The position numbers and the translations under genes are program-made. This document shows positions 9,601-32,492 of a stretch of DNA of 64,000 nt, one piece after another. The notes under the pieces are model-generated. The model was not told the origin of the DNA, did no database searches, and was given only the letters and a program-made list of their open reading frames with translations. The stretch is from Podarcis melisellensis (Eukaryota), in the NCBI GenBank assembly GCA_964234715.1, contig OZ174288.1. One strand, 5' to 3'. How positions within the stretch are numbered: position 1 is the stretch's first letter; the number at the start of each line of letters is the position of its first letter.

Positions 9601-11025
9601 CTGCCATATATTTGACTATCTCCCCATTGGGCAGAAGTTGTGGGTGTTTCTAGAGTACAGTGAGCTCCAGGAACAAGCAGGGGCGTAGCATGGGGGGTGC
9701 AGGGGGGGCCGGGCGCACCGGGCGCAACATCTGGGGGTTAGGGTTAGGGGGCGCAAATCCACGGGTTAGGGGGCACAAATTACTTGCCTTGCCCCGGGTG
9801 CTGACAACCCACGCTACGCCACTGGGAACAAGTTGGTTCCCACACCTGGAAACGGCAAAAGAGGCAGAGAGAGTGTTGGGTGGGGTCTTCAGGGAGGTCC
9901 CACTCCCATGATGACAGTTCCCCTGCTGTCATAGGGAATGAGGGTCTCAGGGAAAGAGAGCGTTGCCTAGAAGAGAGTTTGAGCTCTGAAGACATTTCAT
10001 CATTTGTCCAAAATTTGGTTTGGAGACTGTTGCATGAAAGGCAAAAAAAGTTAATAGGTACTTCCCCTTCCTCGTCCTGTGAGCTGATTGTGCTGCATAT
10101 GGTAATGGCAGAGAGGCAGAGGAAACTAGCTGCTCAGAAGATGTTGTGATGATCCCTTTGTGCTCTATAACAAGAGTGTTGAGTCCTAAGCAGTATCCTG
10201 TGATGGTGCTAGAATCCTTCCTTTCTTGACCCTTTCTTTGAAGCTGCTGACCTGCAGCGCTGGCTTAGCTCTAAGTGTTGCGTCCTCCTCTGCAGGGGCT
10301 CTTTGCTCGCAGGCGTCAGCTGCTGCTCACTGAAGGGCCACACTTGTACTATGTGGACCCTGTCAACAAAATTCTGAAAGGAGAAATCCCTTGGTCGCTG
10401 GAACTCCGGCCGGAAGCCAAGAACTTCAAGACCTTCTTTGTTCACACAGTAAGTGACCCCTTCCTGCTGACAAGTTCTGACTTCACCGGTTCTGTTCAGT
10501 GGGCTCTTGCAGGTGTGGTATTAGCAGGGCCCATTCAGCTGCCAGTGCTTCCTGGGAGGTGTTGAGGAAGGTGCTGGAGGTGTTAATTGGCTGTGGGATC
10601 CTTCCCCTTTTTTGAAAAATGGATCTAGAACTTCCTGAAGTAGCAGCTCCCTAGTGACACAGCTCCACACACTGATGACTCTTGTACCTTCTCAGGCCAG
10701 AGTTGGCTCACACAGCCACCCTTGCCTTTTAATAGCTCCTGCCCGTTGTTTGGTTTTTACTGTGGGAGACTTCTGATGTACAAAGTGCTGTGTGCAACCT
10801 TCATCCCCAGGGGAGGGAGGGGAGGCCCAAGCCCATGCACTGCCTGCTGGCCTTGTTCAGCTTAGTTAGGTTCTTGCTGCAGGAATTAGTAGGGACTAAA
10901 CCTTTGTTTACTTGTAGCCTAACAGGACATACTACCTGATGGACCCAAGTGGGAACGCTCATAAATGGTGCAAAAAGATACACGAGGTTTGGCGACACAT
11001 ATACCACCAGAACACTGCGAAATGA
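658..11025 (+). CDS. PDPK1: 3-phosphoinositide-dependent protein kinase 1, 5'-partial (12 coding exons in window; kinase + PH domain)
   Basis: Exons 658-700, 912-1049, 2287-2431, 3180-3277, 3738-3813, 5122-5190, 5340-5436, 6303-6476, 8561-8784, 9223-9280, 10296-10448, 10918-11025 (TGA). All have AG/GT boundaries and consistent phases. Translation includes [32 protein letters not shown] and the PH domain [25 protein letters not shown]...[17 protein letters not shown]. Confidence 0.98.
1050..2286 (+). other. U12-type (minor spliceosome) GT-AG intron of PDPK1
   Basis: 5' site GTATCCTT at 1050; branch site TCCTTAAC at 2268-2275, about 12 nt before the AG at 2285-2286; no polypyrimidine tract; the codon T|AT (Tyr) is reconstituted across the junction. 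Confidence 0.93.
1548..2146. mobile_element. Tc1/mariner(pogo)-type non-autonomous DNA transposon (MITE)
   Basis: TIRs ccgcattggcccgaatataagctgcac / gtgcggcttatattcgggccaatacgg, flanked by TA on both sides; GC-rich internal short repeats (gcgcaggctaaccagct). Confidence 0.85.
4224..4780. repeat. Cluster of nested inverted repeats (MITE-like foldback)
   Basis: About 35-bp IR agggctgtattgggacctaggcctgggcgatatat at 4224 pairs with ~4397-4431; a second palindrome is centred near 4625 (aaacaagttgcattgtcct / aggacaatgcatcttgttt; tgggtgaaactgcctcagc / gctggggcagtttcaccca). Confidence 0.7.
8058..8215. mobile_element. Short Tc1/mariner-type MITE
   Basis: TA-ccatatttttccgtgtataagac ... gtcatacacagaaaaatacag-TA: imperfect TIRs with TA target duplication. 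Confidence 0.7.
9678..9824. mobile_element. hAT-type MITE (147 bp) with perfect 8-bp TSD
   Basis: TIRs caggggcgtagc / gctacgccactg; TSD ggaacaag at 9670-9677 and 9825-9832; internal GGGTTAGGGTTAGGG. Confidence 0.9.
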
Positions 11026-14000
11026 GACTGCCCCCCCCAGTGCCCTGCCTCCCTCCTTGCTGCTAGAGCGCCACATGCTCCCAGCCTGAGGACTCCTCCC
11101 AGCCCAGCCTACATCCATCTCCAGGGCCAAAACTAGTTCCTTCTCTAAGGAAAAGCCCAACCAATGGAATTCAGGGTCGCTTTGCTTGCTTTTGTGCTTC
11201 TGTTGAGGCTTCCAAACACACACACACACTTGCACAGCTCTCTTTGCTGCCGTGAGAGACTCCCTTGGCTTCTGCTGCAGACTGCTGACTTCAGTGTAGA
11301 TGAGTTAAGCCAAGCCACGCGCACAGCCCAGATCATGTGGGGCGGGATTATTACTGTGACTTTCCGATTTTATCATGCAACTGTGTTTCGTCAGGGAGCT
11401 TTGAAACATCTCCGTGTGAGAGGCCACCATTGTTTCTGCTGCCACTTCCTCCCTTCTAGTTGGTCTCTAGTTGGTATCCAGCACTTGTAACCGCTGCTGC
11501 AAGCGGATGGACGCCCTTGCCGAATCCTTCAGGTTGTGTCCAGTTGCAGGATTCTCCATGGATGGTACTTCTAATTGCATGTTTTGCAGATAGATACACT
11601 CCGGCACAGGTGGTAAGAGAGGGAAAATTTGAATGTGGCACTTAATCCTGGAAATCAAATTTCATACAATTTTAAACATGGAATTTTAATTTGATGCATT
11701 TACATGTTGAACTAAGGAGCATTAAAGTTACCAGCATGCTTTTAACTAATACTAACTGAGAGGTTGCCTAGTTAGTACCAAGCTGTATTGATGTAGTAAA
11801 TAGACTCTTCACCTTTTCCAAAGAGGGGGAGGGGGAGCAAGCTGGTTCTTTCCAGGGTGGAGCACTGCAGGGGGCTGGCCTGTTGTGCCTGGGGAGAGAA
11901 GTGCGGTTGTACAACTGATGACTTGATTTGTTGTCTCTTTGTATAATGAGGTGTACAAATATATTCCTGTCTTGTTCAATGGCAAAGCGTCAGACCTTTT
12001 AGCAACTTTGAAAATATTTTACATGATTTAAATATATTTAAGCCCCTCCACTAATCAGACTAATTGTTGTGTTTATGTAAAAATGTTGATACAAAGGAGG
12101 GGAAGTGTATGGTACTTGAGTCATATCTATCAAATGTTTCATATCGTTCTTTTGTCCTTTTCCTATTAAACTGTTATGGTCAAACATTTCTTGTAACATA
12201 GCAAAGATATTGCTTTCTCACTGCAAGCATTCTTTCTCTATGGTGTGCTCTGATATCTGGGTATCTGAAGCTTTTTTGCAGGGAGGGGAACAGGTTCTTG
12301 TCCAGACACCAGTTCTCTTCCTCACCCCCCAAAAGTACTGGTACCACTTCTGTTCACTTTTCACTTGTACCGTAAGAGAGAATTATTTCACTAGTGCTGA
12401 GCAAGAGGTGTCAGATTTAGGTTCCATTTTGAAGGTGAGGGTTTCTCTTGCCCTTAAAGTCAGGAGTAGACTTGGAAGTGGAGAGTGTCTGGTTGTTGCT
12501 GGAAATAAGAGAATCTGCTCTTTTCAAAGTTCCACCAGCACAAGGTGAATAGCACTTCTGGAACAGATGAGGCTGGTCTACTGTTATCTCTAGTTCTGTC
12601 TACAAGTTGGACCATTTTTCCTGTAAAGCTTTGACACACCCATGTGTTTGTTCATACATGCATACTGTCTGCAGAAGCCATCACATGGAACATGGATGTA
12701 TTCTTTTCCTGCAGCCAGGCAATGCAACCATGACTCTTAACAAGCCACCAGAAGTAGTGGAGCCAAGTAGAAGTGCTTTTGGCAGTGAGAATCCCCTTCC
12801 AACAGCTGTCAGTCATGCTGGTTGTTTTTCTTCCTTCCCCCACCCCTTGGTAAAACTGAATCCCATTGGGTGAAAGCAAGTGGCAACTTAACATCACCCA
12901 CAACTGTATTAGATTGTCTCAGGAGAGGTGCTGGGAAGCTCCTCTCTGGAAAATGATGACACACACAGATTTGACTTCTCCCATGGATGATGATTGTTCT
13001 GCACAATTCATCTAATGATTCAAGGAGTCTTTCTAGTAAGAAATGTCCAGCGATACTATTATGTTGGCAGAACTGCTCTGCGACTGCACCAGAGGACACA
13101 TTTTTCTGCTTGGCTTGCCTAAATTTGCTGGCTGCATCCTGCTATTTACTTGGATTAAGAGGAAGCATCTCTGCCCCATTAAAAATGGTGCCCCATTTCT
13201 TCCGGTAAAGCAGTCTCTCTCAGCCTTGAGTAGAGCCAGTGGGAGGATGATAAGAAAAATAGCACTAAAGGGGAAGAGTCAGTTTGGACCAAGGGGGAAC
13301 AGACAGGAGGAGCAGAGAAGGGGAAAGAGATCCAGTCATCTCACTTTCACAGCAGGTCTGAAGCTTCGAAAGGCAAGAGAGCGGAAATGCTGGTTCAGGT
13401 GGCTGAGAGGACACCTTTAGAATAGGTGATAATATAATTCAAGTCCGGAGTAGGGTTGAGGTATCTAGTTAACGGCACTCTCCATACTCTTGCTCTCAAC
13501 TAAAGCATCTCTCTTCAGCCACTTTCAGGACAAGTGCAATAGTCTTAAAAGCCGTGTTTGTCACAGTTCACACTGCTGCAAATATTAGACCTTGGGAGGC
13601 GGGTAGCATTTTGCTGCTGCATTTGACTGGATTACTAAACTGCTTTGAGGGGTGGTTGTGGTTGTTGTTTTTACAATCAAGTGTATATAAATAAACCACA
13701 CATAAGGCTGAGTGTTTTGGAAAAGTTCTGTTTGAATTACCACGCAGACAACACCATCAGGTATTTGGTCCAGGAAGACAAGCTGGGCTGGGTCTGCTAA
13801 CTCGTAAAAAAGTGACACAAAACTTTTGTGTCCCAAACCCAGCTTCTGACACTGCTTCTCACTTGCCTCAGATTCACACATCTTCTGCATTGTGAAAGAC
13901 CTAGAATTGTATGGAAGCTTCCCATCAATTAAGGAGCAAACTAATGTGTGAAAAGCTTGTTTCAGTTTATGCAAACTTGTTTCTGAAATCCATGAAGCTC

Positions 14001-14598
14001 AAAGTGAAAGTTCCAAATGAGAAGCTCTGGATTTTTCAGGCATTAATTCTGGTTATAGAAATAAACATGAGACCTAGGTTAGTATCTTCAGTGATGAATT
14101 ATTTCATGGGGTAGTGATATAAATTAGCTTGGGATAGCTAATTCTTGTCTACAATTATTATAAGCAATTGCAACCTTTTGGTATGCATGGTACTTAGAAG
14201 CAAATCCCACTGAGTCTATGGGACCTACTCCCAGGTAAGTGTACATAGGAGTGCACATACTTTTAAGTGGTGATCAAGCTGAACTCTCCAATAGTAAAAG
14301 TTGTAAAAATATCCAGTTTTATTGCTACTTCATAGTTACATTATAGGGGTATTTATTTCTGAGCTTTTTCCTCTTAAAAATTGAGTTCCTTCTGTTGCTG
14401 CATGATGATGCTTATGTCTGCATACTGTTTCTAATCCCAGATAATAAAACCCTCCTGTTTATTATGGTGATTGTTTCAAGTTTCAGCTTTTTTATTTCCT
14501 CATTTCTTTCTAAGTGGAAAACCTAAGTGTTGTATAACTTAAGATACGGCAGCTTGCAGTTTCATCTCTTAACACACAGCATTTGTATTGCATGTTTG

Positions 14599-14604
14599 AA
14601 TAAA
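14599..14604 (+). terminator. Candidate distal poly(A) signal of PDPK1 (3'UTR ~3.6 kb)
   Basis: AATAAA at the end of a long AU/U-rich tract downstream of the stop codon; an alternative AATAAA lies near 14443. Confidence 0.45.
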
Positions 14605-15903
14605 ACATATCTGCGCTTCATTCACGTTCCCAAAATAGCAAAGCAAATTTAGGTTTGGATAAGTAAACATCGCATATTCCATGGTTCAAAACTTCTGAAT
14701 TCCCCTATCTGCATTACATATTGCCAGTATGGAAACTGCTGAAGAAAAACGTTGATCCATCGTTAAAGCAAAATACTCGTGGATCCTCCATGTCGTCCTG
14801 TATCAATCTGCCAATGGATTGGGACGCGCTCTCTCCCTCCATGTCCCACGGTCCACATTGGCTTGCATCATTCACTTATTTTTCAGGAGCTGGGGAAGGA
14901 AGGAAGGCAGTCTCCAGTTCCCAGCCTCTTTTTTGTGTGGGGGCCATGTATTAGCACAGAAGTGGCTGCTGGGTCCTGAGTGGGAAAAGAACACACAGGC
15001 CCCATTATGCTGCATTAGAGTAAGGCTTGCAGTGTCAAACATTACTCCCCCCCCCCCCAAAGGTATTTTAAAAGCTGCTTTTTAGGTTTAAGGCTAACCT
15101 TTCAAAGAAATGAGGGCTGTAATGGCCAACATCAGATCAGTGTATTCATGAGAATGCAGCTAGTGCTATATCCCCCACATAGAGGACATTTCCACCCACC
15201 CCGGCAGCAAAACACCTGCCATGTGTTCTTCTGCTAACCATGAAGCCCCGAGCCAGTCCAGGCAATGTGATCCAGATCCATTTCATTTGGGGTTTAGGCC
15301 CAACTAGGCACAAAAACTGCTTTAGTGGCCCTGTATGATGATCTCTGTCAGAAGAGAGAGGAAATGTGCCTCTTCTCCTTGACCTGTCAGTGGCTTTCAA
15401 TGCTATCAGCCATGGTATCCTTCTGGAGTGGCTGTCCAAGTTAGTGGTGGTTGGCACCACTCTTCATGATCATGTGATCAAGGGTGATGCTTGGAGAGTG
15501 CTATTCTGCTCTGTGGAGCCTTCAGTGCAGGGTTCCTCAGGGTTTTATCCCCCATGCTACATGAAGCAGCTGAGGGATTATCTGGAGTTTTGGAGTATGC
15601 TATCAGCAATATGTGGATGACACACAGCTCTACTCCTTCACATCTGCAGGTGAGGCAGTGGATGTGCTGGATCGGTGTCATGCCTTGGTAATGGCCTGGA
15701 TGAGAGCCAACAAACTGAAGCTTAATCCTGATAAGACTGAGGCACTGTTAGTGGGCAGTTCCCTAGACCAGATGGATGGGAGGTTGCCTGCTCTTGAAGG
15801 AGTTTAACTCCCTGTAAAGGAGCTGATGCACAGCTTGAGGGTACTTCTAGATCCATTGCTTGTCACTTGAGGCTCAAGTGGTCTTGGTTGCACAGAGTGC
15901 CTT

Positions 15904-16032
15904 AGAATTATAGAATTGTAGAGTTGGAAGGGTCCCTGAGGGTAATCTAGTCCAAGCCCCTGCAATGCTGGAATATGTAGGTATGAGGATCAAACCCAGG
16001 ACCTTGACATTATTAGCACCATGCTCTAACCA
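15904..16032 (-). mobile_element. SINE with tRNA-Ile(AAT)-like head and CR1-type tail, inserted in the L2 remnant
   Basis: Minus strand reads tggttagagcatggtgctaataatgtcaaggtcctgggtttgatcc (tRNA-Ile-like), then cattgcaggggcttggactagattaccctcagggacccttccaactctacaattctataattct. Confidence 0.8.
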
Positions 16033-16423
16033 TCAGTTTAGACTGGTGGCCCAGCTGCACCCCTGTCTGGACAGGAATAGCCTAACTTCAGTTAATTATG
16101 CTCTTGTAACCTCTAGGTTAGATTACTGCAATGTGTTATACGCAGGGCTGCCTCTGAAGATGGTTCGAAAATGTCAGAGGGCACAGAATTCAGGAGTCAA
16201 TATGCTTGGAGTTGTTCACCAGGACAATATGCTTTGATCATATAACACTGATCCTTTCCCAGCTTCCAGTAAGTTTCTAGGCCCAATTCAAAGTGCTGGT
16301 TTTGAGCTATAAAGCCTTAAAAACTACTCAGGACCTCAAGGATGTAAACTACTGATATGACCTGAGGCCCTTGGTGCGCCTTTTCTGCGGAGGCTCCCTC
16401 TTTATGTTTTGTGCCTTCATTAC

Positions 16424-16694
16424 TGTTAAGTTGTGGGTGAACATATTAGACGACCCAGTGATTCTTCAAGCAGCTCTTGTTTATTCACAGGCCAGAACAG
16501 AACTGAACTAAAGGGTTCAGCCAGCCGGCTTATATAGAGCTCCACTACAACGCAATAGTAACTACTTTCTGTAACTATCCAATCACTGAACGTCACTTTC
16601 AATCCCTTATTTGCACATGTGGACCTGGGTGAAAACTTATCTACAGTACAGTATCCCCCCTGCTGGCCCAGGGTGAAAACATCAGTACATAACA
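16424..16694 (-). mobile_element. Solo LTR (271 bp)
   Basis: TGTTA...TAACA termini; perfect 5-bp TSD ATTAC (16419-16423 / 16695-16699); minus-strand TATA (ctatataag) followed by AATAAA. Confidence 0.88.
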
Positions 16695-16929
16695 ATTACA
16701 GATTACTAGGTGCCAGGCAAAAACATTCCTCTTCTCCCAGGCCTTTGGCTGATTGATCCAAGGTCTTTAAAATTCTGTTGGGGGGTGGGTTATTGTTTTT
16801 TGTTTACTGCTATGTTATGTGCTTTTGTGCTATAAACTGCCCTGTAAGCCTAAAATGAAGGGCGGTACAGAAATTCAATTTAACTAAATAAATGTGGGCA
16901 GACATAGAGCTCCTGCTCCCCCCTCCTCC

Positions 16930-17800
16930 ATCGGCGCGGAAGAAGAAGAGACCAGGCGAGGCGGAGGTGAGATAGTAAAAGCGGCCGGCAAGCAAAGAGT
17001 TAATCAGCGCCTCCGCCCCTCTTCCCGCTGGCGTACCCAGCAAGCAGAAGAAGCCCGCAGAAGGGGAGGGGCCTCTCTCCTCCCTCACTTCCGGACGGCA
17101 GGGGGCGGAGCCACATCGCCGCCGCCGCACATGCGCTCTCGGAGAGCCTGCTGGGACAGCTGCCCGGAGGGGACGCCTTTCGAAGGCGGACCTTCCGGCG
17201 CGCAGCCAGGATGGCGGCGGAGGGCTCCTGCGAGCTGCCGGTGGTGCCGGCGGCAGGGCTTGGCCTGTCCGGGGCTCCCTCCGCCTCCTGCCGGCGCTGC
17301 AGCAGCAGCTCCAGTTCGTCGTCGTCGTCCTTCTCCTCGCCTTCGTCGTCGTCCTCGTCGTCGTCGTGCGGGGGCTGCCTCGCTCCCCCGGCCCCTCCCG
17401 TCGCGGGCGGCGTGCCCGGGAAATGGGTCCGGCTGAACGTGGGCGGCACCTGCTTCCTCACCACCCGGCAGACGCTCTGCAGGGACCCCAAAAGCTTCCT
17501 TTTCCGCCTCTGCCAGGCCGACCCGGACCTCGACTCCGACAAGGTGAGGGGGTGCCGCCGCCGCATTCTGCAGGTGCTCCGGGGACAGGCCGGGCGAAAA
17601 CCCCATAGCTTGGCCGCCCCACCGCGGGCACTAGGCTGAAGGGCCCCCGTTTTGCTGCCCCGGTTCCTCCCGGAGTGCCGGGCTCTGCGTGAGAAAGAGC
17701 CGCTCAGACCACCTGTGTCAGCGGCGCCGTCGTTACCGTGAAAGAGGCGCCCACCGTCAGGTTCCCGCTCTTTTCTGGTCGGTTACCCGGGAGGTTGGCC
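16930..17800 (+). promoter_or_regulatory. CpG-island promoter of KCTD5
   Basis: High GC and CpG content; ETS-like cacttccgg (~17086), GC box gggggcggagc (17101) and NRF1-like gcacatgcgc (~17127) upstream of the ATG at 17211. Confidence 0.8.
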
Positions 17801-20800
17801 GCCTTTTCTCCCGCATCTAGGCAGGCAACTTTTAAGTGTTGAGCATGTATAATTAGTATGCATTGAGCACAGTAGGACTTGCTTCCGAGGAAACATGCAT
17901 AGGGTTGCACTTCGAGTTCACGAGGGATCCACACTGTCTTGAGCAGAGGGTGTGGAGCGACGGGGTTGAAGGGAGATCTCAGTGCCAGCTCAAAGCATCT
18001 TGCTGCCTGAAGTGGGGCACCAGCCGTAGCCCCCTTTCTATAAAAGGGACCCTTCCTATGCCTGTGCAAAACCCACCTGGGCCTCAGTGGGCATGCTGCT
18101 GGTCGCTAGGCATACGGCGAGAGAGAGACTTCAGTACTGAAGCGCTGGGCCCCACCAAAGCCCGCAAGTCTTAAAAATGTGTGAAGTTTTCAGTTTATCA
18201 GAACTCTCTAGCAAGCAAGATATTACCACACAGCAAGGTTTTATGAGGGGAAATCAAACCCAAATATAGTTGCTGTGGCTATGTGGCCAACTGGTTTGTC
18301 TTGGTTCCAGCTTGGAGATAAAAGACCAAACGGGTTCATCCTAGGGGCTGCATGAACCAGGTGACCCACCTGGGAGTATGTCCTCATGATTTGAGAAAAT
18401 AAAGCCTGACTTGTAACCCTAACGTTTCTAACACCCTAGACAAAAGATAGATTTCTTAGGCAGAACAGAACTAACAAGACATGGTAGTATTATTTCACTT
18501 TTAAATCTAGGAGGGCCGTCAAAGGTTGTCTGATCCAACTTACTGTTGATGTAGAACATCAACTTTGGGAAAGAGACTGTATTTCTTGAGAGTCACTCTA
18601 AAAGGCTTGTTCAAAACAGCTTTGTCTCTGGGCTTCTTTTAGTAGATTGAAGGTTCTCTTGTTTTACCCAGGGGGATCTATGATTCTCCAAATGCTGGTG
18701 GACTGTGACTTCCATCATCCATGGCTGGCAGAAGGAGCTAATGGGGGTTGGAGTCCAACATCTGCAGAGCACCAGATTAGCAAAGGCTGCTCTAGACTCT
18801 GCATATCTGGGCTCTGGGCATCTCCAGGCCTTGACTTCTCTTCACCAGACAGGTTCCTCTTCTCTGGGGCCAGGATGCCAACTTGAATCAAATATTTGCG
18901 GGGGGGGGGGGCAGGTAAGCTCCAGTCCACATAACTGATCATATGATGCAGTATAACACACCATTTGAATGGCAATGCCCATCAACTTTAGCCAAATATA
19001 TTTTATTGGGGAGGTCGAAGGAGACCTTCGCCCCTAGGAGTTGGCTCCTTTTCTCTGGAGTAAAGTTATTCTCTCTTCTGGTTGGACTCATAGATGAAGG
19101 CAACATGCAGAAAGTCTGCTCCCAACAGACTAACTCAGGAATAGCTAACTTGGTGCCCTCCTTATGTTGGACCGTGACATGCTTCAGCGCCAGCCAGCAT
19201 GACAAATGGTCAGGGAAGGTGGGAGTTGTAGTTCAGCAACAACTGGAAGGCACCATGTTGGTTGCTCCTGGACTTGAATAAGGAATCTTCAAAGGGGTAG
19301 TGAAACTGTTGGACTTTAAGCTTTAATGCAAATGTGACGCCTCTTTTTGCATTTCATTTCCATATGATCTCACTGTTTGTATTTCTTTCTCTGTACCTAT
19401 GTAGCAATGACATGCAATGTATCTGATGAGGTAGATGCTAGTCCATAAAAGCTTACAGTCTTCATAGTGCCCCTGGCTGTTCAGTTAATTGTTAAGTGTG
19501 CCTTGGCAGTGGTCAGATTGCACTCCAGTCCTGAAAGACTCAGTTGGCATATAGCTTAAGCTTGCTTTTAATGACTCAAGTGAGCTGCCTCTCCTTGCCC
19601 TTTAGTTCCTGATAACGCCCCTTGTGTATTGCCTCAGAGTGCAAGTCTGAACTTGCCTAGATCATGTTGTTTATTGATGCTGGTTCTTACTTAACTTTTT
19701 AAATATTCATTAAAAAATAGAGTAGCTACTTTCATAAACAGTGGGCATACACTAAGAAAATCAGACTGTTGAAACAGCTGTCTCCCAGTATGTCTTGTCA
19801 TATTTGCTCATGAGACAATTGTAGGAGGGGGAGAGAGTCCACCTTTCAGGTTGCTCCTACTGGCATAAGTACTGCCAAGCAAAAAACAATTTCTCATGTC
19901 AGTATGATCCTAGTATGTCAGTTTCTCAGATAAGCTATTTCCACAGTTTCCCCCCCACTGTAGTCTTTTCCATTGCTTGGCTAATTCTAGCCACACTACC
20001 ACAAGCATAATAGTAATCAGATCCTTATGGAGCAAATATTTATTAGGTCAGTTGAGTAAGCTCAGCAGTGCAAGATTACAGTCTACTCAGATTTGTTTTC
20101 TGATAAGAATAGAGCTGTGCTCTTGATTGTGCTCTTTAATCATGGGGTCAGCAAAATTCAGTGCTGCTGGACTCCACATTGTACACCTCTGTGCCAAACT
20201 CTGCTTTCTAACTTTAGAACTGTGGCAAGCCAGTAATGAAGTGGGGGAAGGAGCGGGATAGATTCTCATGGATCCATGGTTTTTACATGAAGGTGCCTCA
20301 AATCCACTATCAAACCAGTGCTTATATCTTTGTCCATGGACTGCTCCATAAAAATCACAGTTCATCATGGTGCCAAAAATTAGACCCAGGGTAAAACTCA
20401 TTCAGATCCAAGAAAAGCCATTTCCAGGTTTCATGTTTTTGCTAGTGGTGCAAAGACTCACCAGAATTGTGAGTTTTGCAATACAGTTGTTGCATACTTA
20501 GAGAGATAATTTGCATCCTCAAAACCCATCCATCCACAAGTAGGCTGCATATTTATTGTAAGATACCAATCAATGCAACAGGACCTGGATCCTTCAGTGT
20601 GGATTTTCACGGCATGGACTGAAAGCACCAAAAAATTTATTGGCCTTAAGTTTGCAACAAGAATGGAAAATACCTTGTAGCATCGTGCTACGAATATTGT
20701 ATATTATGTCCTGTAAGTACCAGAACAGACACTGAATTGGTAATCCATGAATGTCCAGAGTGGGACTGGAGTTTACATTTAATCATTACATGGATCCATC

Positions 20801-23800
20801 AGGATCTGGCCATCAGAAATGGCTAATTTTTGTGATGAGTAACCAGAGGTGTGAACTATAATGATAAGACAAAGGTGGTCAAAGGTGGTCAAGGGTTCTA
20901 TTTGAAAAAAAAAGAATGATGTATGAAGATCAGTGCTTCATTCCCAGTTTTTTTGCACCACAAGCATCACGTAGTATTAGTTTTACAATTTTATAATGTT
21001 CATTGTCTTTTGATAGTGAATTTGGGGCATTTTCATGTAAAAATGTGGTCTGATGTTTCTCTGTATTCCAATGGGCATTTATAAAAATACTTATATATCA
21101 CTATTTCATAGAAAAAAATCAAAGCAGTTTACAATAATGCATAAAACTATACAAACAAAACCCTAAAAATTTAAAATACGACATCAGTTAATTGTCATGG
21201 TATTAGATGTGGATTGTGATTATGCAGTGGATTTTGAGTTTCTCTATTTAAAAAATGCTGAGCTTCTTTTCCTGAGAACTACCATTCTGGCCCCTGTAGA
21301 ATTGAAAGATAGTGACTCTTATGTTTTCAATGCAATCAGTGGGGATAGATGCAGGTTGTGAGTAGCTGGTATATTTTTGGGAGCTGCTTTATAAGAATCA
21401 AGAAGATCCATGCCTAGAATCTAGGTTTTTGCAGTATGGTAATGTCACAAAACACTGGATCCGTGATCTTTGTAGTTCATTCTGCCACCATATTTATTTA
21501 TTGTTGGATTCCTCCTTTCAGAGTAAAAACTCCCAATGTGGTTTCCGTAGAAGCAGTAGCATACAATACTTAAAAAGAGCCCATCTGGTCCAGCACCCTG
21601 GACTCACCAGGTGCTTGAATGAATAGGCCACAAACAATACCTGAATACAGCAGCAGCAGCAGCTCTCTCCCTTTTGGGTTTCCCTCCAACTGAGCTTCAG
21701 AGACATAGCACCTCTGACAGTGGAGGTGGAGCATAGCCATTGTGGCTAGTAGCCATTGGTAGCTGGATCTTCCATGAATTTGTCCAATCCTTTTTAAAAG
21801 CTGTTCAAGTTGGTGGTCATCACTACTTCTTGCAGGAGTAAATTCTGTAGTTTAACTGTGTGCTGTGTGAAGAAGTCCTTCCTTTTTTCTTTTTAAAAAA
21901 TCTTAGTGGAAATTCAGTTCTTGTGATTTCCTTTATTTTAGTTTTGGTTTTGCATTTTCACTTTTATTCATTATTATTGTCACAACATCCATATTTCTAT
22001 ATCAAGGAAAAATGAATGAAAAGTCCTTCGTTTTGTCTGTCCTAAATCTTCAAAAGTTCAGCCTGTTGTGTGGCCCTGAGTCTTGAGGGAGGGAGAGGTT
22101 TCTGTACACCGTGCATAATTTTATACACCTCTGCCATGTCCCCCCCCCCCAACTCATTTTTCCCCTCTAAATATTATAAATTGCAAATGTTAAAGCCAAT
22201 GCCATAAAAACAAATAATATCAGGGCAAATTTAATAATTGGAACCCCCCCTATGAGAAAGCACGATAACAAAATTGCCGTTCAGGAAAATGCTGTGAGCC
22301 TTGATTGGATGGTGAATTTTTGTGTTCAGCTCATAAAAATAATGTGAATTCAGAGGGCTCTGGCAACCTTCTGCAAAATCGTATTTCTGTACAGGTGTGT
22401 AACAAAATACCTTTTAAGCCCCTTTGATGTTTTATTAAACAGCCCCTCTTCTTGACAGGAGGAGGAGATTTTTGCTGATATCCTGTTCGGTTCCTTTTGC
22501 CTTCCAAAAATCTTCTCCAGATGGTTGAGGGACCCACCAGAACCTTTGGGTAGGGGAGATTGCTGGGGTCTGCAGGGAGAATTGGAGAAAGGCATCTTCC
22601 TGCAATGGATACCTCAACTCAGTTAGAGCACATTTTATGAACTGTAGGGACCATTCAATACATTTCTAAGCCTGGATCTAACCCGGATATTTGAGGGCTT
22701 TATTGCTTTGGTTGCAATTTTAGGTTTATTATTTAGTATAAAGACCATAACTACTGGTTGAATGAAATGGATTGTTCTCATTTGGATAAATGTTACTAAG
22801 CTTTTCTTACCCCACATTAATATAAATTGTCATTTGAGCCAAATTATTAATTTTCACAATCCCTTGTGGTAATTGATTAGAGATTAGAAACTAGCTGAGT
22901 AGTAGCTCTGTTTCACAATTAAGACCTCCAAACTGAAGCTCTGATTATTCATTAATGCAGAGCACTGAATCCTTGGTGGAAGCTTCTGATTTATGACATG
23001 GATGAGGGCATGTCATGGTTGGAATGTCAGGATCTCTGTGGGGTCTCACATTAATTTAATCTGGTATTTTAATTTAGTTGGCTGATCTGGGAATAGGGTG
23101 GCTTAAGTGTGATAAGACAATTTCTATATAAATAAGTAACATACATATTTTAATTAGGACGAAACAGGTGCCTACTTAATAGACAGAGATCCAACCTACT
23201 TTGGACCGGTGTTGAATTATCTCCGACATGGGAAACTGGTTATCAATAAAGACCTCGCAGAGGAAGGTATGTTTTGCTGTTTAGGAAAACTGCTTTAATG
23301 TTTGATCACAGCTGTGAAAAATCACTTTGGGTGTACAGTAATTGGTTTCACTTACGCAAAGCATGGCAGCCTGTTTGGGCTGGGCTAGTTTGTAGCATTG
23401 CTCTACAACTTGCAGTGGCCTTCAGATCTTGAGACCTGAATGATCCTTTAGAAACCAGGATCCGGCACCTGAAGTGCTGTGAGGTCACTGTTTTGGGGAG
23501 GTTGTTGGCTGGTGCATGACCTACCTGGAACACTCCTCTCTCCTGGGCTTTCTCTTTCTGCTTTGGTCTTGGAGCAGAGGCCTTGCCTCATCCTGACCAG
23601 GGCAACGCTTCAGAGGGACAGTCTGTCGCTTGGCCATGCAGTGCCTCTCAGGGCCTGTTGGTGACACAGACTTTCTCACAAGCAGCTGGAGTTTTATGAG
23701 GCCCTCTTTTGACTTTGTGTTCCCCTCCAATCAGGTGTGCTTGAAGAAGCTGAATTCTACAACATCACATCCTTAATCAAACTTGTAAAGGACAAAATAA

Positions 23801-26800
23801 GGGAACGAGACAGCAAAATCTCACAGGTAGGACCTGCTAGTTTTTTTAAAAAATTATTTGTTTTTGAGGTATCCTTGGCTTGACTTCATTTCAGAATGTG
23901 TGGCTGTGTTTGGTGCCCAAACTGAGGGAATTATGAGAAGTGGCTTCTGGTGGTATCAGATGCCCTTTTTCCTTTCATGATTGAAATGTTTGTGCTTGTG
24001 GCAATGCCAAGGGGAGGAGGGCAGCAGAGAGATCTTGCTGCCGGCTGGGCAGGCTTCAGAGGCTGAGGCAAGGGGCTTTTTTGCACTCTGGAGCTCAGTG
24101 GTAACGGAGAAGGGACTCGTTTGGAAGACATGATGGTTGAAACCAGTGGCCATTCTTGGCCTGCTTCATCTTTCAGCTGTCTCTCTGTGTTTTTCACCAA
24201 AGGTGCCAGTCAAGCACGTTTACAGGGTGCTGCAGTGCCAGGAAGAGGAGTTGACTCAGATGGTCTCCACCATGTCTGATGGCTGGAAATTTGAGCAGGT
24301 AAGAGAACGGGAAGCAAACTGTTCAGTCTTTCAGGGCCCATACAAACAAACAAAAAAGCAGGCGAGAGGAGTGTGAGGGTTGGAATAATTGTGGGTGTTG
24401 TGGGCCTGGGTCCTGGAATGGTCAGGAAGTTCATACAAATAATAATATTATTAGCTTGTACTTTTACAGCAGTTTGCCTGAATGCTCAAAGTGCATCACA
24501 AATTAACTCTAGTTGTTTCTTAAAGTAACTCTGTAAAGAAGGACAATATCATTATTTCCCTACTGGGAATAAGCCTTGGATGTGCCACTGAGCTTGTGCC
24601 TTAGGAGATGCTTGATTTGCAGCTTATACTCTCAGCCTCTGAGTTGCACCTTCTTGGCATTTCCATGGGAAATCACACAGCAGGCACCAAGCACTTCATT
24701 CCTCCAGCACTGTGCCAGGTGGCCGTTTCAAGGCAAAGATCCATTTGCTCCACTTTTTATGTAGAGAGCTCTTGGAAACACAGTCCTCTGGGATTAACTC
24801 TGGTGGTGATATGAACACTGCTAGCTGTTTTTTGCGCGTGTGCTGCTCTGGTTGGAAAATTAGAAATTCTCGTAACTAGGCTCTAAACTGTGGCCATGTA
24901 GTGATGTTTGTCCACCAAGATGCCATGTCAGGGCCAGTGCTTCAGATCCTGCCATCAGTATTGCAGCACTGATCAGATCACTGGTATTTGCTTGTACAAG
25001 CAGAGCAGCTCTCTGTGGTGGAAGATTCTCAGTTAATGGAGATTTGGAGAGCAGAAGGAGGAATCAATCAAAATCTTTTTGGCTAAGAACTGTCCCTCAA
25101 CAGGCACTAGCTCTCCAAGAGCAAAGAAGAGTGTGGATTCCCCACAACTCTGTCTCTGGGCCTGTATTTTGTACATCCATTGTGGATGGCTCTAGGCCTG
25201 CAGTCTTCCTTCTGTGCAACATTCTAGGAGTTTCGCAGCTGTGTGTTTACACAGTCAGTGCTCTGTGTGGTCAGGACTGCTTACACTCCTGTGAAACACT
25301 GAAGCCTCCTATCTGCACAATGCCACACTCTCCTGCCTGAGCATGAATTATAGGAAGGGACAGGGGCCACTATTAATGTTAGATGCCCCTTGTGAGAACA
25401 GGAAGGAGAGAGCTCCACCTTTATTTAATAGCCCAGAATGTTGACTGTCAGAGCTTTAGTTGTAATCCCTTATTAAGTTCTGTCTGAAGCACAAGAAGAG
25501 CCACCCTCAGTTGTCTCTCTTTCCCACCTCCAGCTAGTCAGCATTGGATCTTCCTATAATTATGGGAATGAAGACCAGGCCGAATTCCTTTGTGTTGTTT
25601 CCAAGGAGCTGCACAACACCCCTTATGGCACAGCCAGTGAGCCCAGCGAAAAGGCAAAGGTGAGTCATCTTCAGGGTGGAGCAAGGCCCAGCTGCTGCCT
25701 TCCTCTGCCATCAAAGGTTGTTTGTCAGTTGCTACTAAGAAAGCAGCTTGCTTGGGTATCCTCTGCCCACCCTTTCTCAGGTGTCCAAGCACAAGACACA
25801 CATGAGCACACTGAGCAGTTGTGGAAAAAGGAAGCTCCAACATCACACCTCTTATGCAGGAGCAACAGTAAACCAGCCTTGGGTGTGATAGAGCACTGAG
25901 CCAGTTTAGGCTTCTGTCCATCTCATTGCTAGTTCTGTTAAACTCAGCTGTATGAAGACAACCTGCCCCATGCAAAAGTAATGGTTATGGATGTGTGGAT
26001 GTCTAATCCCCAAACACCCAACTCCCAAAGAACAGCTAAACCTTTTTCTGGAAAACGACAGGTGCTATTCTAGGTGTGCCTGCATGTGGGTGCAACCCAA
26101 AAAACACAGACACACCCACCAACATGGAAACCTTCATTTGTTGAACCAAAAAATAAAGGCATATAAATCTCATTTCAGTGTCAAGGCTAATTTATGTATG
26201 CCAACACAGGCATGCCTTGTTGGCCTGAATATAAGCCACACTTCCCCCCCCCCCCCAAATTCCGACCATGAAAAGTGTGGCTTATATTTGCGACCTGACT
26301 GTATGCAGCCAGGAGTGCGGGGCAAACAGTGGCAGGAATGCGGTGAAGTAGTGCCCGCCCTGCATGTAGTTCCCCATCTTCTCCCTCAAGACCAGGAATG
26401 GAGAGAACAAGGAAGGGGAAAGGCCGCCAGCAGTACAGCACAGCTCCCCCTTCCCAGTATGCAACCAGAAGCAGCGAGGATGGGAGCGGCTTATATTCAA
26501 GTATATTTTCTTTTCCCTCCTCCAATTTTAAAGGTGCAGCTTATATTTGGGCCAATATGGTATATAGACTGGCAGGTGCTTTTGATTCTAACACACCCAT
26601 AACTCTAAGCTGGAGAATTTAAGATGCCCTGTATTGGGAGAAGGAAAGGTAGGGTATCCCATGACTTCAGGGTTCTCTTTCTTTCTAGTTTCCAACTTGA
26701 GGTACCCAAAGTTTCATGGCCTTAAATCCAGCAAAAGCTTTCCTTGTGAGTGCAGGGTGAAAGAGGCAAAGTGGAGCTCTGAGGAATTCCCCCCACCCAC

Positions 26801-29800
26801 ACAATTCAAAGACTCGCTACTGAAATACACTTAGTGAAACTTGATCAATAATGTCAGTGATATTCTTACTTTCGAGAAAGTGGTGAGAGTCTGGTATGTG
26901 GCTAATATCTCCTGTCCTGAGGCCGACATGGAGCCCAATTCTGGCTGTCTTAGCTCCCCTGAGTTAAACAGTCCCTTGATCTACTCCTAACTTTTCCATA
27001 AATCATGGCGAGAAATTTCCCTCTGGCCTGAGAAAGCACTCTGCCGACAGGACTATAATTAGAGGCCCTGCCCTTGGTTGCCAGTGTTATTGTCTGGCTG
27101 CTCTGTTGCGGTTAAAATCAGGATGTCTGCGTTCATGTCATGTGGCATTCAGTAGAGACAAAAGGGTCAGAATTCCGGGGGATGGGGGAGAGAAAGGCAA
27201 AGGAGCATATGTCCCAAGATGCATCAGGCCTATGCCAGGCTACAGTCGACTGAGATGAACCAAGGTTCTGGTGTCATGCATAATTGTTAATTAACACAGT
27301 TGTGCCATGGGCATAAGTTAATGCCAGCCCTCTGCACATTTTTCATTGAGTTTTCAACATAAAATACAATGAAAGCCAAACTAATCAAAAGAAGATAAAT
27401 AGGCACACAAAAGAAGACAATAAAGAAGTAGAAAGAGATGAGGAGGAGGAGAAAAATAACAAGGTTCTCTATCATAATTATATCTTAACCTTTATTCCAC
27501 ATACAGACGGATGAACCCTCCCAGCTCTTACCTGGGAGCTTGCCCCTCTTCCCCCAGCCTCCCTCCCTGGGAGATGCTGGGCCCTTCATCTTCCATCCAT
27601 CTGCACCATTTTAAATGAAGCTGCTGCTGCTGTTGTTCAAGAAGCTGGCAAACAGTGTGCCAGGCAGCTTGGAAGCAAATGTGCGATTTCTGTCTCACTG
27701 TCCTATTTCACTCTCTACCTTATGCTTTCCCTTGGCCTTTGGCTTTGTAAACAGACAGCCAGATAGTAGAGTGATTGTTTCTGAAGGTGCAAATGATGTG
27801 CCGGATGCTAAAGTGATGTTCAGAAAGATCTAAGCTTCAAGATCCTTGCATGAACTCCTGAATTAATGAAGAGGGCACAGATAGGAGGCAAGGTTTTTTG
27901 TGTTCATCTGGCACTCTTGCATTGTGTGGCATTTGCATGCTAGAGAGAAGTGGCCATGCTGGGATCTGTGCCTGTTGAGAAGGAGGAAGATGATGTTGGA
28001 GTTGGGTGAATTAGTAAAGGTGCAGGGCAGAGCCCGCAGACACAAGGAAGCCCAGCTTCTTGCATCTTCACTAATGGTCGGTCATAGTTCAACAAGACCT
28101 CTGGCACACGAGGTGGAATCCAGGTGTCCTTGCAGGCATGAGTGCTCTCCAGCTCACACCCTGCAGAGCAGCTGCTAACCAGCTAAGAAACTGTTTGGAT
28201 GTTTATCAGGAAAGGTTGTATGGGGGTGGGGTGATGGTGGCTGGGACCCAGGGCAAAGGGACAGGCATCTCTCTCTATTGAGTTCTTTTGAAGAGAAAGG
28301 TGCCTCTTATGCACATCCTTAAGCGTTTGCTTTTAAATATATCAACAAAAAAACAACTCGGGCTCCCATGCCCAATTAAATCTTAATTAACCAAAAAAAG
28401 TTGGTTGGGGGAAGTTAGACAAAAGGAAGAGGGAATATGGAATTACAGCATCTGAGCCAGACACCCTGAAAGTTACTAAAGTGCTTTCACATGAAAGCGC
28501 ATAAATTAGAAATACTGTTTTTGGTCTGTGGACGAAAGTTCAATTTCCAGTGTTTCCAGGCTAGTAATGTTTAGCCACCAAAAGGTGGGATTTGACCATA
28601 AACTATTTGCTTCTTCTGGATGTGAAACCTATGGGATGGTAACCAGTGACTTACTCTAGTGCAAGGTGAGGCACTCTGTTTTCAACACACCCACCTATTG
28701 CAGCCCTGTGCGCCATGTCCCTTGCTGTGCCAGAGGGTCCTTGACACTGGATATGGGTGTTTTGCTGCTGCTTGGCAGCTTGACAGCTGTTTTCAGTGGT
28801 GGTTCGCCCTCTTCACACTGTGATGGCTTTTTCCTTGCGTTGTAGCTGCTCTTCCAGCGATTGATTGATTGACTGGCTGCACTGTTGTATTGCTTCTGTG
28901 ATCAACTCACAGAAGACTCTTCTGGGTTACCCTTCACAATTCAGGGGCTGGCTTGGACAGAAGTCTCATGCTAAGACAAACCCAGGCCAGACTTTTCCGG
29001 ATCTCTTTCCTGGATCTCCTTTTGTAGGGCAGCTGTTGAAGTGAACGGGCCAGTTGTCCAAAGATCACCAAGCAGAAGCCTTGAATCCTCTCTCAGGCAG
29101 CCTGGGGACGTTTGTACTTTACTCACCTTGCACTCTTTTCTTTTCCTTTCCTTCCTGCTCTTTGCACTTGCTTCATGAAACTCAGAGTGAAGACGAAGAG
29201 ACGGATTACGATATGAATGACTCAGATTAAGTGTGAATGCCATGGTGAGCACTAGGACTTCACCCACCTGCCTGTCCTCCCTCTGGCCTCTCCCACTGGT
29301 GCATCTTGTTTTGTGTTTGTAGTTGCTGCCTTGACCCCGTTGCCGGGTAGCCGTAGGCCCCTAGACTGCCTAGTGGTCCACTTGTGTGTTGGCTCCTTTA
29401 CTTCCTGCTGCTGTTGGTCCTCTTCAGAGGAAATGTGTTTTTGTGGCTCTTCTCACATGGAGGAAAGCAAGACTCCACCAGGGAACCCATCTGCTTTTCA
29501 CTTTAGAAAACCAGGGGAAGATAGGGGCCAAAAGGTCTGAGTTGCAGTCGTCTTCCTACGATGGTCACAGACATTGGGTTGCTTGCTCTTTTCTTTTTTT
29601 TAACTAGTACGCCTTCAGGAATTCCGAATTGCATGCCATGAAACATTGTCTTCAATCAGATGTCTACAATTGCTTTCTCTGAGTTTGGGTGCAGACTTCA
29701 CATCTGCTATGAGAGCAGGGGAAACAAATTGGAAAGAACTCTGTGTTTGTGGAGAAAGTGGATAGAGTTTCTTTCTCCCTCCTAATACTAGAATTCAGAG

Positions 29801-32492
29801 GGGTCATCAAGGAAGCTGCATGCTGGAAGATTCAGGATAGAGAAAAGGAAGTGCTTCCTAACACAGTGCACACTCCTGCAAGATGATGGCTTTGAAAGAG
29901 GATTAGACAGATTTATGGAGGAGGGGGAGGAGGAGACTGTAGATAGCTATGCGGCCCATAGCCAGTACTGGAGGCAGTTGTTGCACTGCAGGGTGCACCT
30001 GTTGCACCGATATTCTGCTTGTGAGCTTCACAGTGGTTGACCACTGTAATAACAGGATAGTGGACTAGATCCAGTAGGTTCATTCCAAGAGGAGTCTCCT
30101 GCTCAAAAATAATCTTGGTTCTTTGCTTTCTGGGGGGAACAGCCTCAAGACCGGCCTAACGATTCAAAAGGAGCAGAAGGATTGTCACCACGGCTGCCAG
30201 AGCTGTAGTAGAAAGTTGGTCTGGTCCTTTTGCTGAGTGAGCAGACTACAAGTGTGCACACCTTCCCTGTTTTTACCATGATGAAAGGAGAAAGAGGTGG
30301 GGAGAAGGGTGCCAGGAGTCTGAGTCAGGAGGTGTGAACTTTTCCAATGGCGGCTCTACCAGAAAGCAGCACTGGGATGGGCTGGAAATTCCTGTGCTTC
30401 ACACACCCGTAGTGTGCCCCTCCTCCAAGTATATAAAGCCCTGCATTACTGTGTGAGGGACTGGCCTTGAGCTACCTAGTGGATTCCACAATCAAGGTCC
30501 TGAGTTGTTTTTAATGGAGCTGATGTGTTGTTGACTCTTATTTCCCCAGCGACAATCTAGTAAAAGCAAGGCATGTTGTGTTTTTCCCTGCTTGCCCTGA
30601 GTGGGGATTTGTCCCTGTTCAAGGCCAACACTATCCATTTTCATCAGTGCTGATGCAAAGAGGAGAAACAGGTGAGGATTTTGCAGAGAAGGTCCCTGGG
30701 AATTCTTTGGAGGAGAAAAGGCCTAGTGGAAACTGCAGGTGTTGCTGGCCAAATGATGCAGTGCTGAAACATCAACATACATTGTGTTGGCTACGAGGGG
30801 TATTTTGCCCTGAGATGTTCTGGGTTCCCAACATGCCAGTGCTATTAAGCAGATAAGGGTCTTTAAAAATAATAATGATTCATGTTATTATTTGAACTAT
30901 CTTATCCTTGCTTGGTGAAGCCAAGGAGTGAGGCTCCTTGATTCTCTGGCAGAGCCACTGCACTGAGTTCTCCTTAGTCCTCGTCCTCCTCAAGCAACAC
31001 AAATAGTGGCCTGGAATGTGGCTCTTTGAGTGCCCTTCCCAGGTCCTTCAGTTGAGGGCTGAAAAGTACCTCTGATCTGTACTGCACATCCCCAGGCGAG
31101 GAGGAAGGCAGCAGCTTGTGGGCAGCCGAGGCCACCTGTGAAGTGTCAAGAGTGCACAGCCTGCCACAGCAACACCTTTATTTCCTGTTCTTGGCCAAGG
31201 TGTCTCCAAAGTGACTTGGAGTTTTATGGTGGTTTCTTCTAGTAGTTGATGTCATCACCACCTGGTTCCAGGCAGGGAGGAGGCAGCCAAAAGGATTCTC
31301 CAACCCTGATACAGGGCAAGATACTTAATTGCTAGAAAAATCTATGAAGCCAGGATATTTACATATCTTTCCTTCAGCATGTGAAGTTATACCATGGAAT
31401 TATTAAATCTCACTAACTGGATCCCAATTGTTGAAAATTTGATAGAGGGACCTTATGATTGTCTAAAAACGTGTTACACATTTCTGCCTCAAAGAAGAGA
31501 GTGAAGTGTACCCCCTCCCAATTAAAGTGCATACCGGTAATCCTTCAATATTGTTTATACACAAACTAAGACACTGATGACTGAACACACCGGAAAGTGG
31601 GGTATTTGTACATCTTTCTTTGGAAAAGGCAGACAGGCTGTACTGTATTAGAAACTTTAAATCTAGCACACTGGCTACTGAAGACATCCTCATTGCTTGA
31701 AAAACAATAAAATAAGCACTAAAGTAGGGTATCAAAACTGGAGCAAAGAACCCAGGCAGGCATGGTTCTGCAGCCTCAGGTTGTGATCTACAACTGTTGT
31801 TCACTTGAATTAACCTTTCGGAGGGGAGGGGGATTTCCAGTAGCTGCACCCCTACTTGCAGATTGCAAATGTCATACTAATAAATGCCATAGAGTCATAG
31901 AATTGTAGAGTTGGAAATGGATCTCCAAGGGTCACTTAGTCCAACTCCCTGTAATGCAGGAATCACAGCTGAAGAATCCCTGACAGATGGCCATCCAACC
32001 TCTGCTTGAAAACCTCCAAGGAAGAAGAGCCCACACCTTCCGAGGGAGTCCATTCTACTCTCAAACACTTCTTACCACTAACGCTTAGTGAGAACATAAT
32101 CAGTAAAACGAGCTGTTGGTTGCATATATGGCCCCTTTTTCAATCCACAACTGTTCTTTTCAAACTGGGAGCTGGACCACTCACATACACTGGCCTAGCT
32201 GTACAACCTAGCTAGTTTTGTAGGGAATGGGTGAGTCTGGCCTGTTGGCAGTTCCCTTAATTAACTTCCTATGTTTTGAGTAGCAGCTGACTGCCTAGTT
32301 CACCATCATGTTCCAAGGTGTCTTGCGTCAGAGAACAAAATCAGTTTGTTTGCCTGTTTTAAGGTTTTGCCTTCAAGAATGCCGGAGTCCTTCCACTGTG
32401 TGAGTCTTGCTGGAGAACCTTACCATGCAGAATCTCACCACTTTTTGTTTGTTTCCTTCCAGATCTTGCAGGAGCGAGGTTCAAGGATGTAA
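17211..32492 (+). CDS. KCTD5: BTB/POZ domain-containing protein KCTD5 (CUL3 adaptor), 261 aa canonical isoform
   Basis: Exons 17211-17543, 23158-23266, 23735-23826, 24203-24298, 25534-25659, 32463-32492 (786 nt). WVRLNVGG...[10 protein letters not shown]...[29 protein letters not shown]...[27 protein letters not shown]. It lies directly downstream of PDPK1, as in human. Confidence 0.97.
21570..22140 (-). mobile_element. Degenerate CR1 LINE 3' fragment
   Basis: Resembles reptile CR1 3' ends (gtggctagtagccattg...catgaatttgtccaatcctttttaaaag...tgtgtgaagaagtccttcctt); boundaries approximate. Confidence 0.6.
26215..26560. mobile_element. Mariner-type MITE, same TIR family as 1548-2146
   Basis: Ends tggcctgaatataagccacac / gtgcagcttatatttgggccaatatgg-TA match the TIRs of the 1548-2146 element. 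Confidence 0.75.
29186..29244 (+). CDS. KCTD5: Candidate alternative KCTD5 cassette exon encoding the acidic C-terminus [14 protein letters not shown]
   Basis: Long pyrimidine tract ~29120-29175, acceptor ctcag|AGT in phase 0 (matches the exon 5 end), TAA at 29228-29230, donor ATG|gtgagc at 29245. Confidence 0.6.
29745..30090 (+). mobile_element. Degenerate CR1 LINE 3' fragment
   Basis: gagaaagtggatagag...ggaagattcaggatagagaaaaggaagtgcttc...gatggctttgaaagaggattagacagatttatggagga resembles the CR1 ORF2 end and 3'UTR. Confidence 0.6.
30550..30570 (+). CDS. KCTD5: Candidate 21-nt KCTD5 microexon (RQSSKSK) with GC donor
   Basis: Acceptor ttgactcttatttccccag|, 7 open codons in phase 0, donor AAG|gcatgt (one mismatch to the GC-AG consensus AAG|gcaagt). 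Confidence 0.4.
31888..32060 (-). mobile_element. CR1 LINE extreme 3' end
   Basis: catagagtcatagaattgtagagttggaa...agtccaactccctgtaatgcaggaat...gacagatggccatccaacctctgcttgaaaacctcc; the tail is shared with the SINEs at 15904 and 43383. Confidence 0.75.

Follow-up and report, generated by a model that had tools for sequence, protein, structure and literature searches.

The last intron of KCTD5 in this lizard contains a 59-nt cassette exon whose inclusion would exchange most of a basic C-terminal helix, the one that contacts G-beta in the published structure, for a conserved acidic tail. Judged by position, length and protein models, the exon is very likely the counterpart of a retina-specific exon of mouse, human and chicken. 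The reading favoured here, to which we assign a probability of about 0.5, is that in photoreceptors the cassette weakens the hold of the CUL3–KCTD5 ligase on free G-beta-gamma. The groundwork for this reading is considerably firmer: exon anatomy, conservation and retina-only inclusion (published for mouse, human and chicken, inferred for lizard) are together highly probable.

KCTD5 lies on the + strand of the window (the whole 64-kb stretch that was analysed), where it was located by a motif scan and by tblastn with named KCTD5 records. Exon 1 shares 97% identity with a named wall-lizard record, as befits a lacertid-type lizard; the paralogues elsewhere in genome G000 reach 79% and 76%. The exons for the BTB domain and the C-terminal domain match KCTD5, not KCTD2 or KCTD17, and identify the product as a clade E BTB adaptor. 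The cassette is hosted by the 6.8-kb last intron, and the features that bear on it are as follows.

17211-17543, 23158-23266, 23735-23826 and 24203-24298, + strand: KCTD5 coding exons 1-4 (motif scan, tblastn, splice sites); together (17211..24298) they encode the BTB domain and the beginning of the C-terminal domain
25534..25659, + strand: exon 5, 126 nt like its mouse counterpart, ending in phase 0 with the first four switch-helix residues
29101..29183, + strand: AG-free zone of 83 nt upstream of the cassette, against 19-32 nt at five constitutive acceptors
29186..29244, + strand: cassette exon, 59 nt, with 14 codons, a stop at 29228-29230 and 14 nt of 3' UTR
29245..29250, + strand: cassette donor gtgagc (after ATG), 14 nt past the stop
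29348..29373, + strand: cluster of four UAG (Musashi-type, by motif count, binding putative), +104 to +129 from the donor
32463..32492, + strand: start of the last exon, ILQERGSRM and stop, switch-helix residues 226-234 in human numbering (exon 5-last exon junction present in reads); this stretch becomes 3' UTR upon cassette inclusion

The cassette at 29186-29244 is a real exon. Its coordinates, frame, stop and donor, as well as the count of eight acidic residues among 14, had been proposed in an earlier note and are borne out by the sequence: the acceptor AG lies at 29184-29185 (cag), the frame continues in phase 0 from exon 5, which ends at 25659, and the TAA ends at 29230. The "strong pyrimidine tract" of that note is indeed strong (86% pyrimidine over 29126-29175) but is set back from the AG, with only 60% pyrimidine at -24..-5. 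The tract is rich in PTBP-type YCU/UCY motifs, where PTBP binding is putative, and CTCAC, with its A at 29125 (-61), is a candidate distant branch point; both assignments come from consensus sequences. Splice signals by themselves prove little, because a simple decoy filter, which rejects the cassette acceptor itself, lets through about four to five other AG/GT pairs of the intron; conservation is decisive. A weaker candidate donor, gtgaat at 29233-29238, would end the exon at +47, which equals the 47 nt of the chicken exon, and the protein would be unchanged with either donor.

Two other uses of the intron were considered and rejected. An alternative last exon with intronic polyadenylation (AATAAA at 31706 and 31879) does not agree with the mouse event, which is a cassette with both flanks, and no reads lie over that part of the intron. 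Splicing to a second candidate exon at 30550..30671 (+ strand), offered in the earlier note as another junction, finds no counterpart among 382 KCTD5 protein records, none of which contains its frame, and no read depth in any of four raw RNA runs; it would also invite nonsense-mediated decay (NMD), because the stop would then lie 136 nt before the last junction.

The 382 distinct KCTD5 sequences were gathered from two protein searches (best 120 matches each) and two cluster listings (at most 15 members per cluster). Among the sequences listed, at least 215 continue after exon 5 with the canonical tail and at least 61 with the acidic tail; the remainder are intron read-through, fusions or one-off ends, and one record caught by the tail filter (P0075) was removed as unrelated. 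The 61 acidic-tail records are predicted gene models rather than detected proteins, from 2 sharks, 5 non-teleost ray-fins, 17 teleosts, 3 frogs, 6 turtles, 13 birds, 5 squamates and 10 placentals, and the placentals include a rodent and two primates. Among the records listed, none with the tail comes from a lacertid, a marsupial, a crocodilian or a snake. The C-terminal exchange foreseen in the earlier note is therefore conserved well beyond reptiles; in sauropsids and amphibians, where that note proposed to look, the tail occurs in birds, turtles, squamates and frogs.

The tail is 14 residues long in 60 of the 61 records and 16 in the other. Twenty-six of the 61 are identical to that of the lizard, with 14/14 identity in birds, turtles, frogs, gar and sturgeon, and a bird record matches the cassette over 14/14 residues when searched against the window (tblastn E 2.9e-9). 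Placental tails keep the length, the ends and the charge, with 5-9 of 14 residues identical. Net charge is between -5 and -9 in all 61 tails, and K or R occurs in only one. Residues S1, D3, E4, T6, D12, S13 and D14 are conserved in 58-60 of the 60 tails of standard length, and Y8, M10 and N11 are kept outside placentals.

Nucleotide comparisons point the same way. A teleost-type genomic contig from a metagenome scan (L002) carries the cassette 1 kb past exon 5 with the same acceptor, frame and stop, a 108-nt AG-free zone and, 23 nt past the stop, a gtgagc donor. The lizard and L002 cassettes differ by six changes in 45 nt, of which four are synonymous, one is stop to stop and one is D to E; the bases after the stop diverge. 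The protein records are nevertheless a fairer test than L002, because the search pattern had fixed ten of the L002 codons. Among lizard contigs, the cassette with its downstream flank is closer to the window than other pieces of the intron are in all four contig sets (1/277 vs 62/2111, 9/478 vs 48/1247, 4/264 vs 59/1619 and 0/231 vs 17/500 differences); these counts come from 32 rows shown of a longer list (2418 others) after a last-exon row and four repeat rows were dropped, and the sets are not independent, because two of the runs come from one organism. At the level of predicted peptides, these comparisons establish that the KCTD5 cassette is ancient and conserved throughout gnathostomes.

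The published tables show where the exon is used. In mouse, a 59-nt exon (MmuEX0025234, chr17:24053272-24053330) follows a 126-nt exon and precedes the last exon (PMC4991804), the same position as in lizard; the human exon is also 59 nt, and the chicken exon is compared by its 47-nt length alone. A homologous acidic tail, also 14 residues long, is predicted by placental gene models, whereas the lizard tail represents the ancestral, more acidic and near-invariant form, from which placental tails differ at 5-9 positions. Inclusion of the mouse exon is 0.51-0.70 in four wild-type retinas vs 0-0.14 in four photoreceptor-less Aipl1 knockouts (Murphy 2016, PMC4991804); the Kctd5 gene itself is not photoreceptor-enriched (log2 fold change 0.10, PMC4991804). 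A second study, which also lists RT-PCR primers for the exon, gives 74% in P28 rods, 17% in olfactory neurons, 3.8% in Purkinje cells and at most 2% in the other columns shown (Ling 2020, PMC6952364), so the exon is not strictly photoreceptor-only. Retina vs other tissues stands at 50.5 vs 0.07 in mouse, 17.1 vs 0.12 in human (HsaEX1018507) and 19.9 vs 0.07 in chicken (GgaEX2015417), and the exon is classed as a retina-enriched long exon with non-retinal neural inclusion of 0.03-0.36% (Ciampi 2022, PMC9303857). Among 12 of the 18 supplementary files of PMC9303857, the zebrafish sheet returned no kctd5 row, and the exon was not found by name or coordinates in 11 of the 12 supplementary files of the Msi1/Msi2 double-knockout paper (Matalkah 2022, PMC9509328).

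The tissue is thus retina rather than the brain suggested in the earlier note, since the exon is retina-listed in three species and non-retinal neural inclusion is near zero. Nor was the exon "hidden", as that note had it: RefSeq/Ensembl models include it for many vertebrates, three published exon tables list it, and because it was already catalogued its discovery in a lizard is ordinary. In the available text of PMC4991804, PMC6952364 and PMC9303857 it appears only in tables, primers or a reply to reviewers, and the protein is unmentioned. A brain-specific or SRRM4 microexon was rejected as a reading: neural inclusion is near zero, the cassette is 59 nt long where SRRM3/4-dependent microexons are at most 27 nt and induced by SRRM3/4, and the human exon shows dPSI of -0.52 to 1.3, that is, no induction, in 8 SRRM3/4 experiments (PMC9303857).

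RNA reads from a related lizard show skipping of the cassette. Reads joining exon 5 directly to the last exon number 3, 52, 25 and 45 in four raw runs, 125 in total. The inclusion junctions that the earlier note predicted (25659>29186 and 29244>32463) are not listed in these runs, of which 6-13% of each was read at a threshold of 3 reads, with 37 rows of loose ends outside the list and the tissue not given; only skipping reads appear. The bin holding the cassette has a depth of about 60, 0, 38 and 118 read-bases in X20, X22, X23 and X24, and its neighbours are empty in X20 and X23, a pattern that fits single spliced reads, but these values are below threshold and are not counted as evidence. 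In the four contig-level runs exon 5 is without cover in 4/4, probably through filtering, which makes the upstream junction invisible, and no splice joint is listed; no inclusion junction is thus listed in the eight runs overall. In the related-lizard runs, then, the cassette is mostly skipped, as it is in non-retinal mouse tissue.

It is possible that the lizard cassette is under the same control as other photoreceptor exons. Six UAG occur in the first 200 nt downstream, vs 2.0 expected from the intron (Poisson p 0.018; 5000 shuffles, p 0.008), and four of these fall within 26 nt with gaps of 3-6 nt, in agreement with the published Musashi cluster rule of at least three UAG in the proximal downstream intron. 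The enrichment is modest: 5% of the 200-nt windows of the intron reach six UAG, the intron has three other clusters, and no cluster lies downstream of the L002 cassette. Inclusion of the mouse exon is lost upon Msi1 knockdown, according to the authors' reply to reviewers (PMC6952364), and the human exon is not switched on by MSI1 overexpression (dPSI -0.75 and -0.26, PMC9303857). The preferred scheme is that Musashi acting on the downstream UAGs is needed but not sufficient, with PTBP1 repressing from upstream; for the lizard this is suggested by motifs. Musashi-dependent exons such as Ttc8 exon 2A (PMC4991804) share with the lizard cassette the downstream UAG cluster and the upstream pyrimidine-rich, PTBP-type tract, but exons of that type mostly insert residues, whereas the KCTD5 cassette terminates the protein.

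The published structure of the KCTD5/CUL3/G-beta-gamma complex points to G-beta as the partner affected by the tail. In the cryo-EM structure, a basic helix of KCTD5 (residues 222-234) sits on the acidic hot spot D228/D246 of G-beta (Nguyen 2024, PMC11047111), and the canonical tail of the lizard matches these human residues exactly. Because exon 5 ends with residue 225, the cassette replaces nine of the 13 switch-helix residues: relative to the solved protein, residues 226-234 are missing and an acidic tail stands instead, an isoform unmentioned in the available text of that paper. None of the seven sequences of solved KCTD5 chains is the cassette isoform, by length or by name. The net charge of the tail changes from +1 to -8. 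AlphaFold models give a helical canonical tail (219-228) and an acidic tail in coil, but with a mean pLDDT of 42-45 this difference carries almost no weight.

The proposed consequence is as follows. Cassette mRNA would escape NMD and yield a protein in which most of the basic helix is exchanged for an acidic, probably unstructured tail. The BTB domain, the pentamer, CUL3 binding and the main G-beta contact patch would be retained, and the acidic tail would be repelled by the hot spot. Affinity for G-beta-gamma and its ubiquitylation would then fall, perhaps in a graded manner in mixed pentamers, and light-released transducin beta-gamma would be spared; the odds on this step are somewhat better than even. 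Light makes photoreceptors release large amounts of free transducin beta-gamma. A review (PMC6722924) cites both the ubiquitylation of transducin beta-gamma and the protection that phosducin gives it, and the level matters in rods, since phosducin knockout lowers transducin beta-gamma by 36% and reduces gain (PMC2151643). Loss of the helix, reversal of its charge, transducin release and the phosducin data together lead us to favour a dampened ligase that spares transducin beta-gamma. The broader proposal, that a photoreceptor exon reversing the charge of the G-beta helix predates the split of sharks and bony fish, tunes the ligase down and protects the transducin pool alongside phosducin, is put forward tentatively, with the balance somewhat against it.

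Published results bear on a dampened ligase in both directions. Deletion of the KCTD5 tail at 209 lowers affinity about 10-fold, reduces ubiquitylation without abolishing it, and leaves a protein that fails to lower G-beta in cells, in line with the proposal. Against it, the tail is called secondary in importance, and the truncation removes 26 residues, not 9 (PMC11047111). KCTD17 with an acidic extension still binds G-beta-gamma in pull-downs (PMC9976452), and KCTD2/17 could cover for KCTD5 in photoreceptors. The available text of Jiang 2023 (PMC10348674) holds nothing further on the KCTD5 tail.

Outside mammals, Y, M and N are almost invariant. Simple charge repulsion would not require this, which hints at a dedicated new partner. 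The acidic tail may accordingly be a gain-of-function docking motif, possibly phosphorylated by CK2, that recruits a photoreceptor or ciliary partner or substrate, or relocates KCTD5, with weaker G-beta binding as a side effect. In addition to the near-invariant S1, D3, E4, T6, D12, S13 and D14, an S-x-x-E/D motif opens 60 of the 61 tails, in keeping with the CK2-like sites noted earlier; the CK2 consensus, S/T-x-x-D/E, is matched at S1 and T6 as motifs. The KCTD17 isoform with the acidic extension is the one that binds trichoplein, a cilium regulator (PMC5469494), and the mouse olfactory neurons that include the exon at 17% (PMC6952364) are also ciliated. However, no partner of the tail was found, trichoplein binding maps past the KCTD17 acidic exon to residues 242-297 (PMC5469494), and placental tails vary freely in their middle part (5-9/14 identical) yet keep their charge, as they should if charge is the property that counts. 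A docking role is on balance unlikely, but it keeps an appreciable share of our credence because the tail sequence is more conserved than charge alone needs.

An effect on dose is improbable. The stop lies upstream of a junction, the acidic, S/T-rich end resembles a PEST-like sequence, and the mere six changes in 45 nt between lizard and L002 suggest constraint at the RNA level too, so that the cassette might act as a poison or expression-lowering exon, or as a C-terminal degron, to cut KCTD5 in photoreceptors. Five of those six changes, though, are synonymous or stop to stop, and the post-stop bases diverge. The distance from stop to last junction is 14 nt in lizard (3' UTR introns surveyed up to 32800), 23 nt in L002 and about 2 nt in chicken if the 47-nt exon is the ortholog, all within the 50-nt rule and short of the >50-55 nt of a poison exon, and steady-state inclusion of 50-74% in mouse (PMC4991804, PMC6952364) likewise counts for escape from NMD. 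That the cassette mRNA escapes NMD and makes protein, as the earlier note supposed, is accordingly very probable. We give hardly any credence to the idea that the cassette serves to remove a motif at the extreme C-terminus, be it SRM, which is a weak peroxisomal targeting signal, or another: the 12 C-terminal residues of zebrafish Kctd5a render EGFP partly peroxisomal, but full-length human KCTD5 is not seen at peroxisomes (PMC8919083), and although SRM ends the 215 canonical-type tails among the sequences listed (a few are SRI), its removal alone needs no conserved 14-residue sequence. It is equally far-fetched that the lizard cassette is a silent relic or a chance decoy. The eight runs without a listed inclusion junction, the lack of the tail from lacertid protein records among those listed and the commonness of decoy splice-site pairs in this intron would fit such a view; against it are intact splice sites, the 14/14 identity from birds to sturgeon, the low divergence among lizards and five squamate gene models that include the cassette, and the tissues of the RNA runs are not given.

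The acidic exon has a possible relative in KCTD17. As the earlier note stated, KCTD17 isoforms of mouse and human are extended by an acidic stretch at this junction (PMC5469494, Fig. S2): alternative exons occur at the same phase-0 position, and one is acidic and opens S-T-(D/E)-E. That exon is longer than the KCTD5 cassette, runs in frame into further exons, is described as coiled-coil (PMC5469494), and is not in the available retina lists of PMC9303857; the likeness is one of composition, with no alignment (tblastn gave none at that exon). At the KCTD17-like locus of the lizard (L008), a candidate acidic phase-0 exon lies 1519 nt past the exon-5 counterpart (G000:C10, 48563980-48564105, - strand), and a canonical LLQ/ILQ-type last exon was not picked up in the 30 kb scanned. 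The 1.7-kb intron of the KCTD2-like locus has no acidic exon. A common origin of the KCTD17 and KCTD5 acidic exons is possible.

The value of the KCTD5 cassette lies in the link between two literatures that, in the text searched, show no mutual citation: no function is attached to the exon in the retina tables, and the exon goes unnamed in the structural work, where the lost helix is defined. In the full-text literature searched (subscription papers, VastDB pages, bioRxiv supplements and the PMC11450717 supplement apart), the acidic isoform is unnamed and the exon is not tied to G-beta-gamma; what was not found in print is the effect predicted for G-beta-gamma turnover. If the link is true, it would explain how the cell with the largest free G-beta-gamma flux avoids degrading it, would provide a function for one of many orphan photoreceptor exons, and would mean that biochemistry done on canonical KCTD5 may not apply in retina.

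Many KCTD5 models contain another extra cassette, of 35-39 residues, which duplicates the first part of exon 5 in tandem and in diverged form. A loose motif for it is matched by 140 of the 382 records, with carriers among sharks, ray-fins, amphibians, turtles, birds and marsupials (P0001, P0003, P0007, P0009, P0012, P0024) and none in squamate or placental records among those listed; in the lizard it was not found in intron 4 (24299-25533; best tblastn E 0.15, wrong strand). This copy would add a hairpin to the G-beta-binding domain, and it was possibly lost twice.

Exon 1 carries a long poly-serine tract in the N-terminal arm (17290-17370), which other squamate records share but those of birds and turtles lack. 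Immediately upstream, and on the same strand, is PDPK1 (window 5284-17543), and PDPK1–KCTD5 fusions, candidates for read-through or annotation artefacts, occur in many turtle, bird and crocodilian gene models. Intron 5 contains interspersed repeats at 26141-26634, 27376-27622, 29846-30092 and 31822-32068, with very high read depth and loose ends. On the - strand, open frames at 56535-60117 resemble what we take to be the C-terminus of an IQGAP-family protein and adjoin genes that are presumably TSR3/GNPTG-like.
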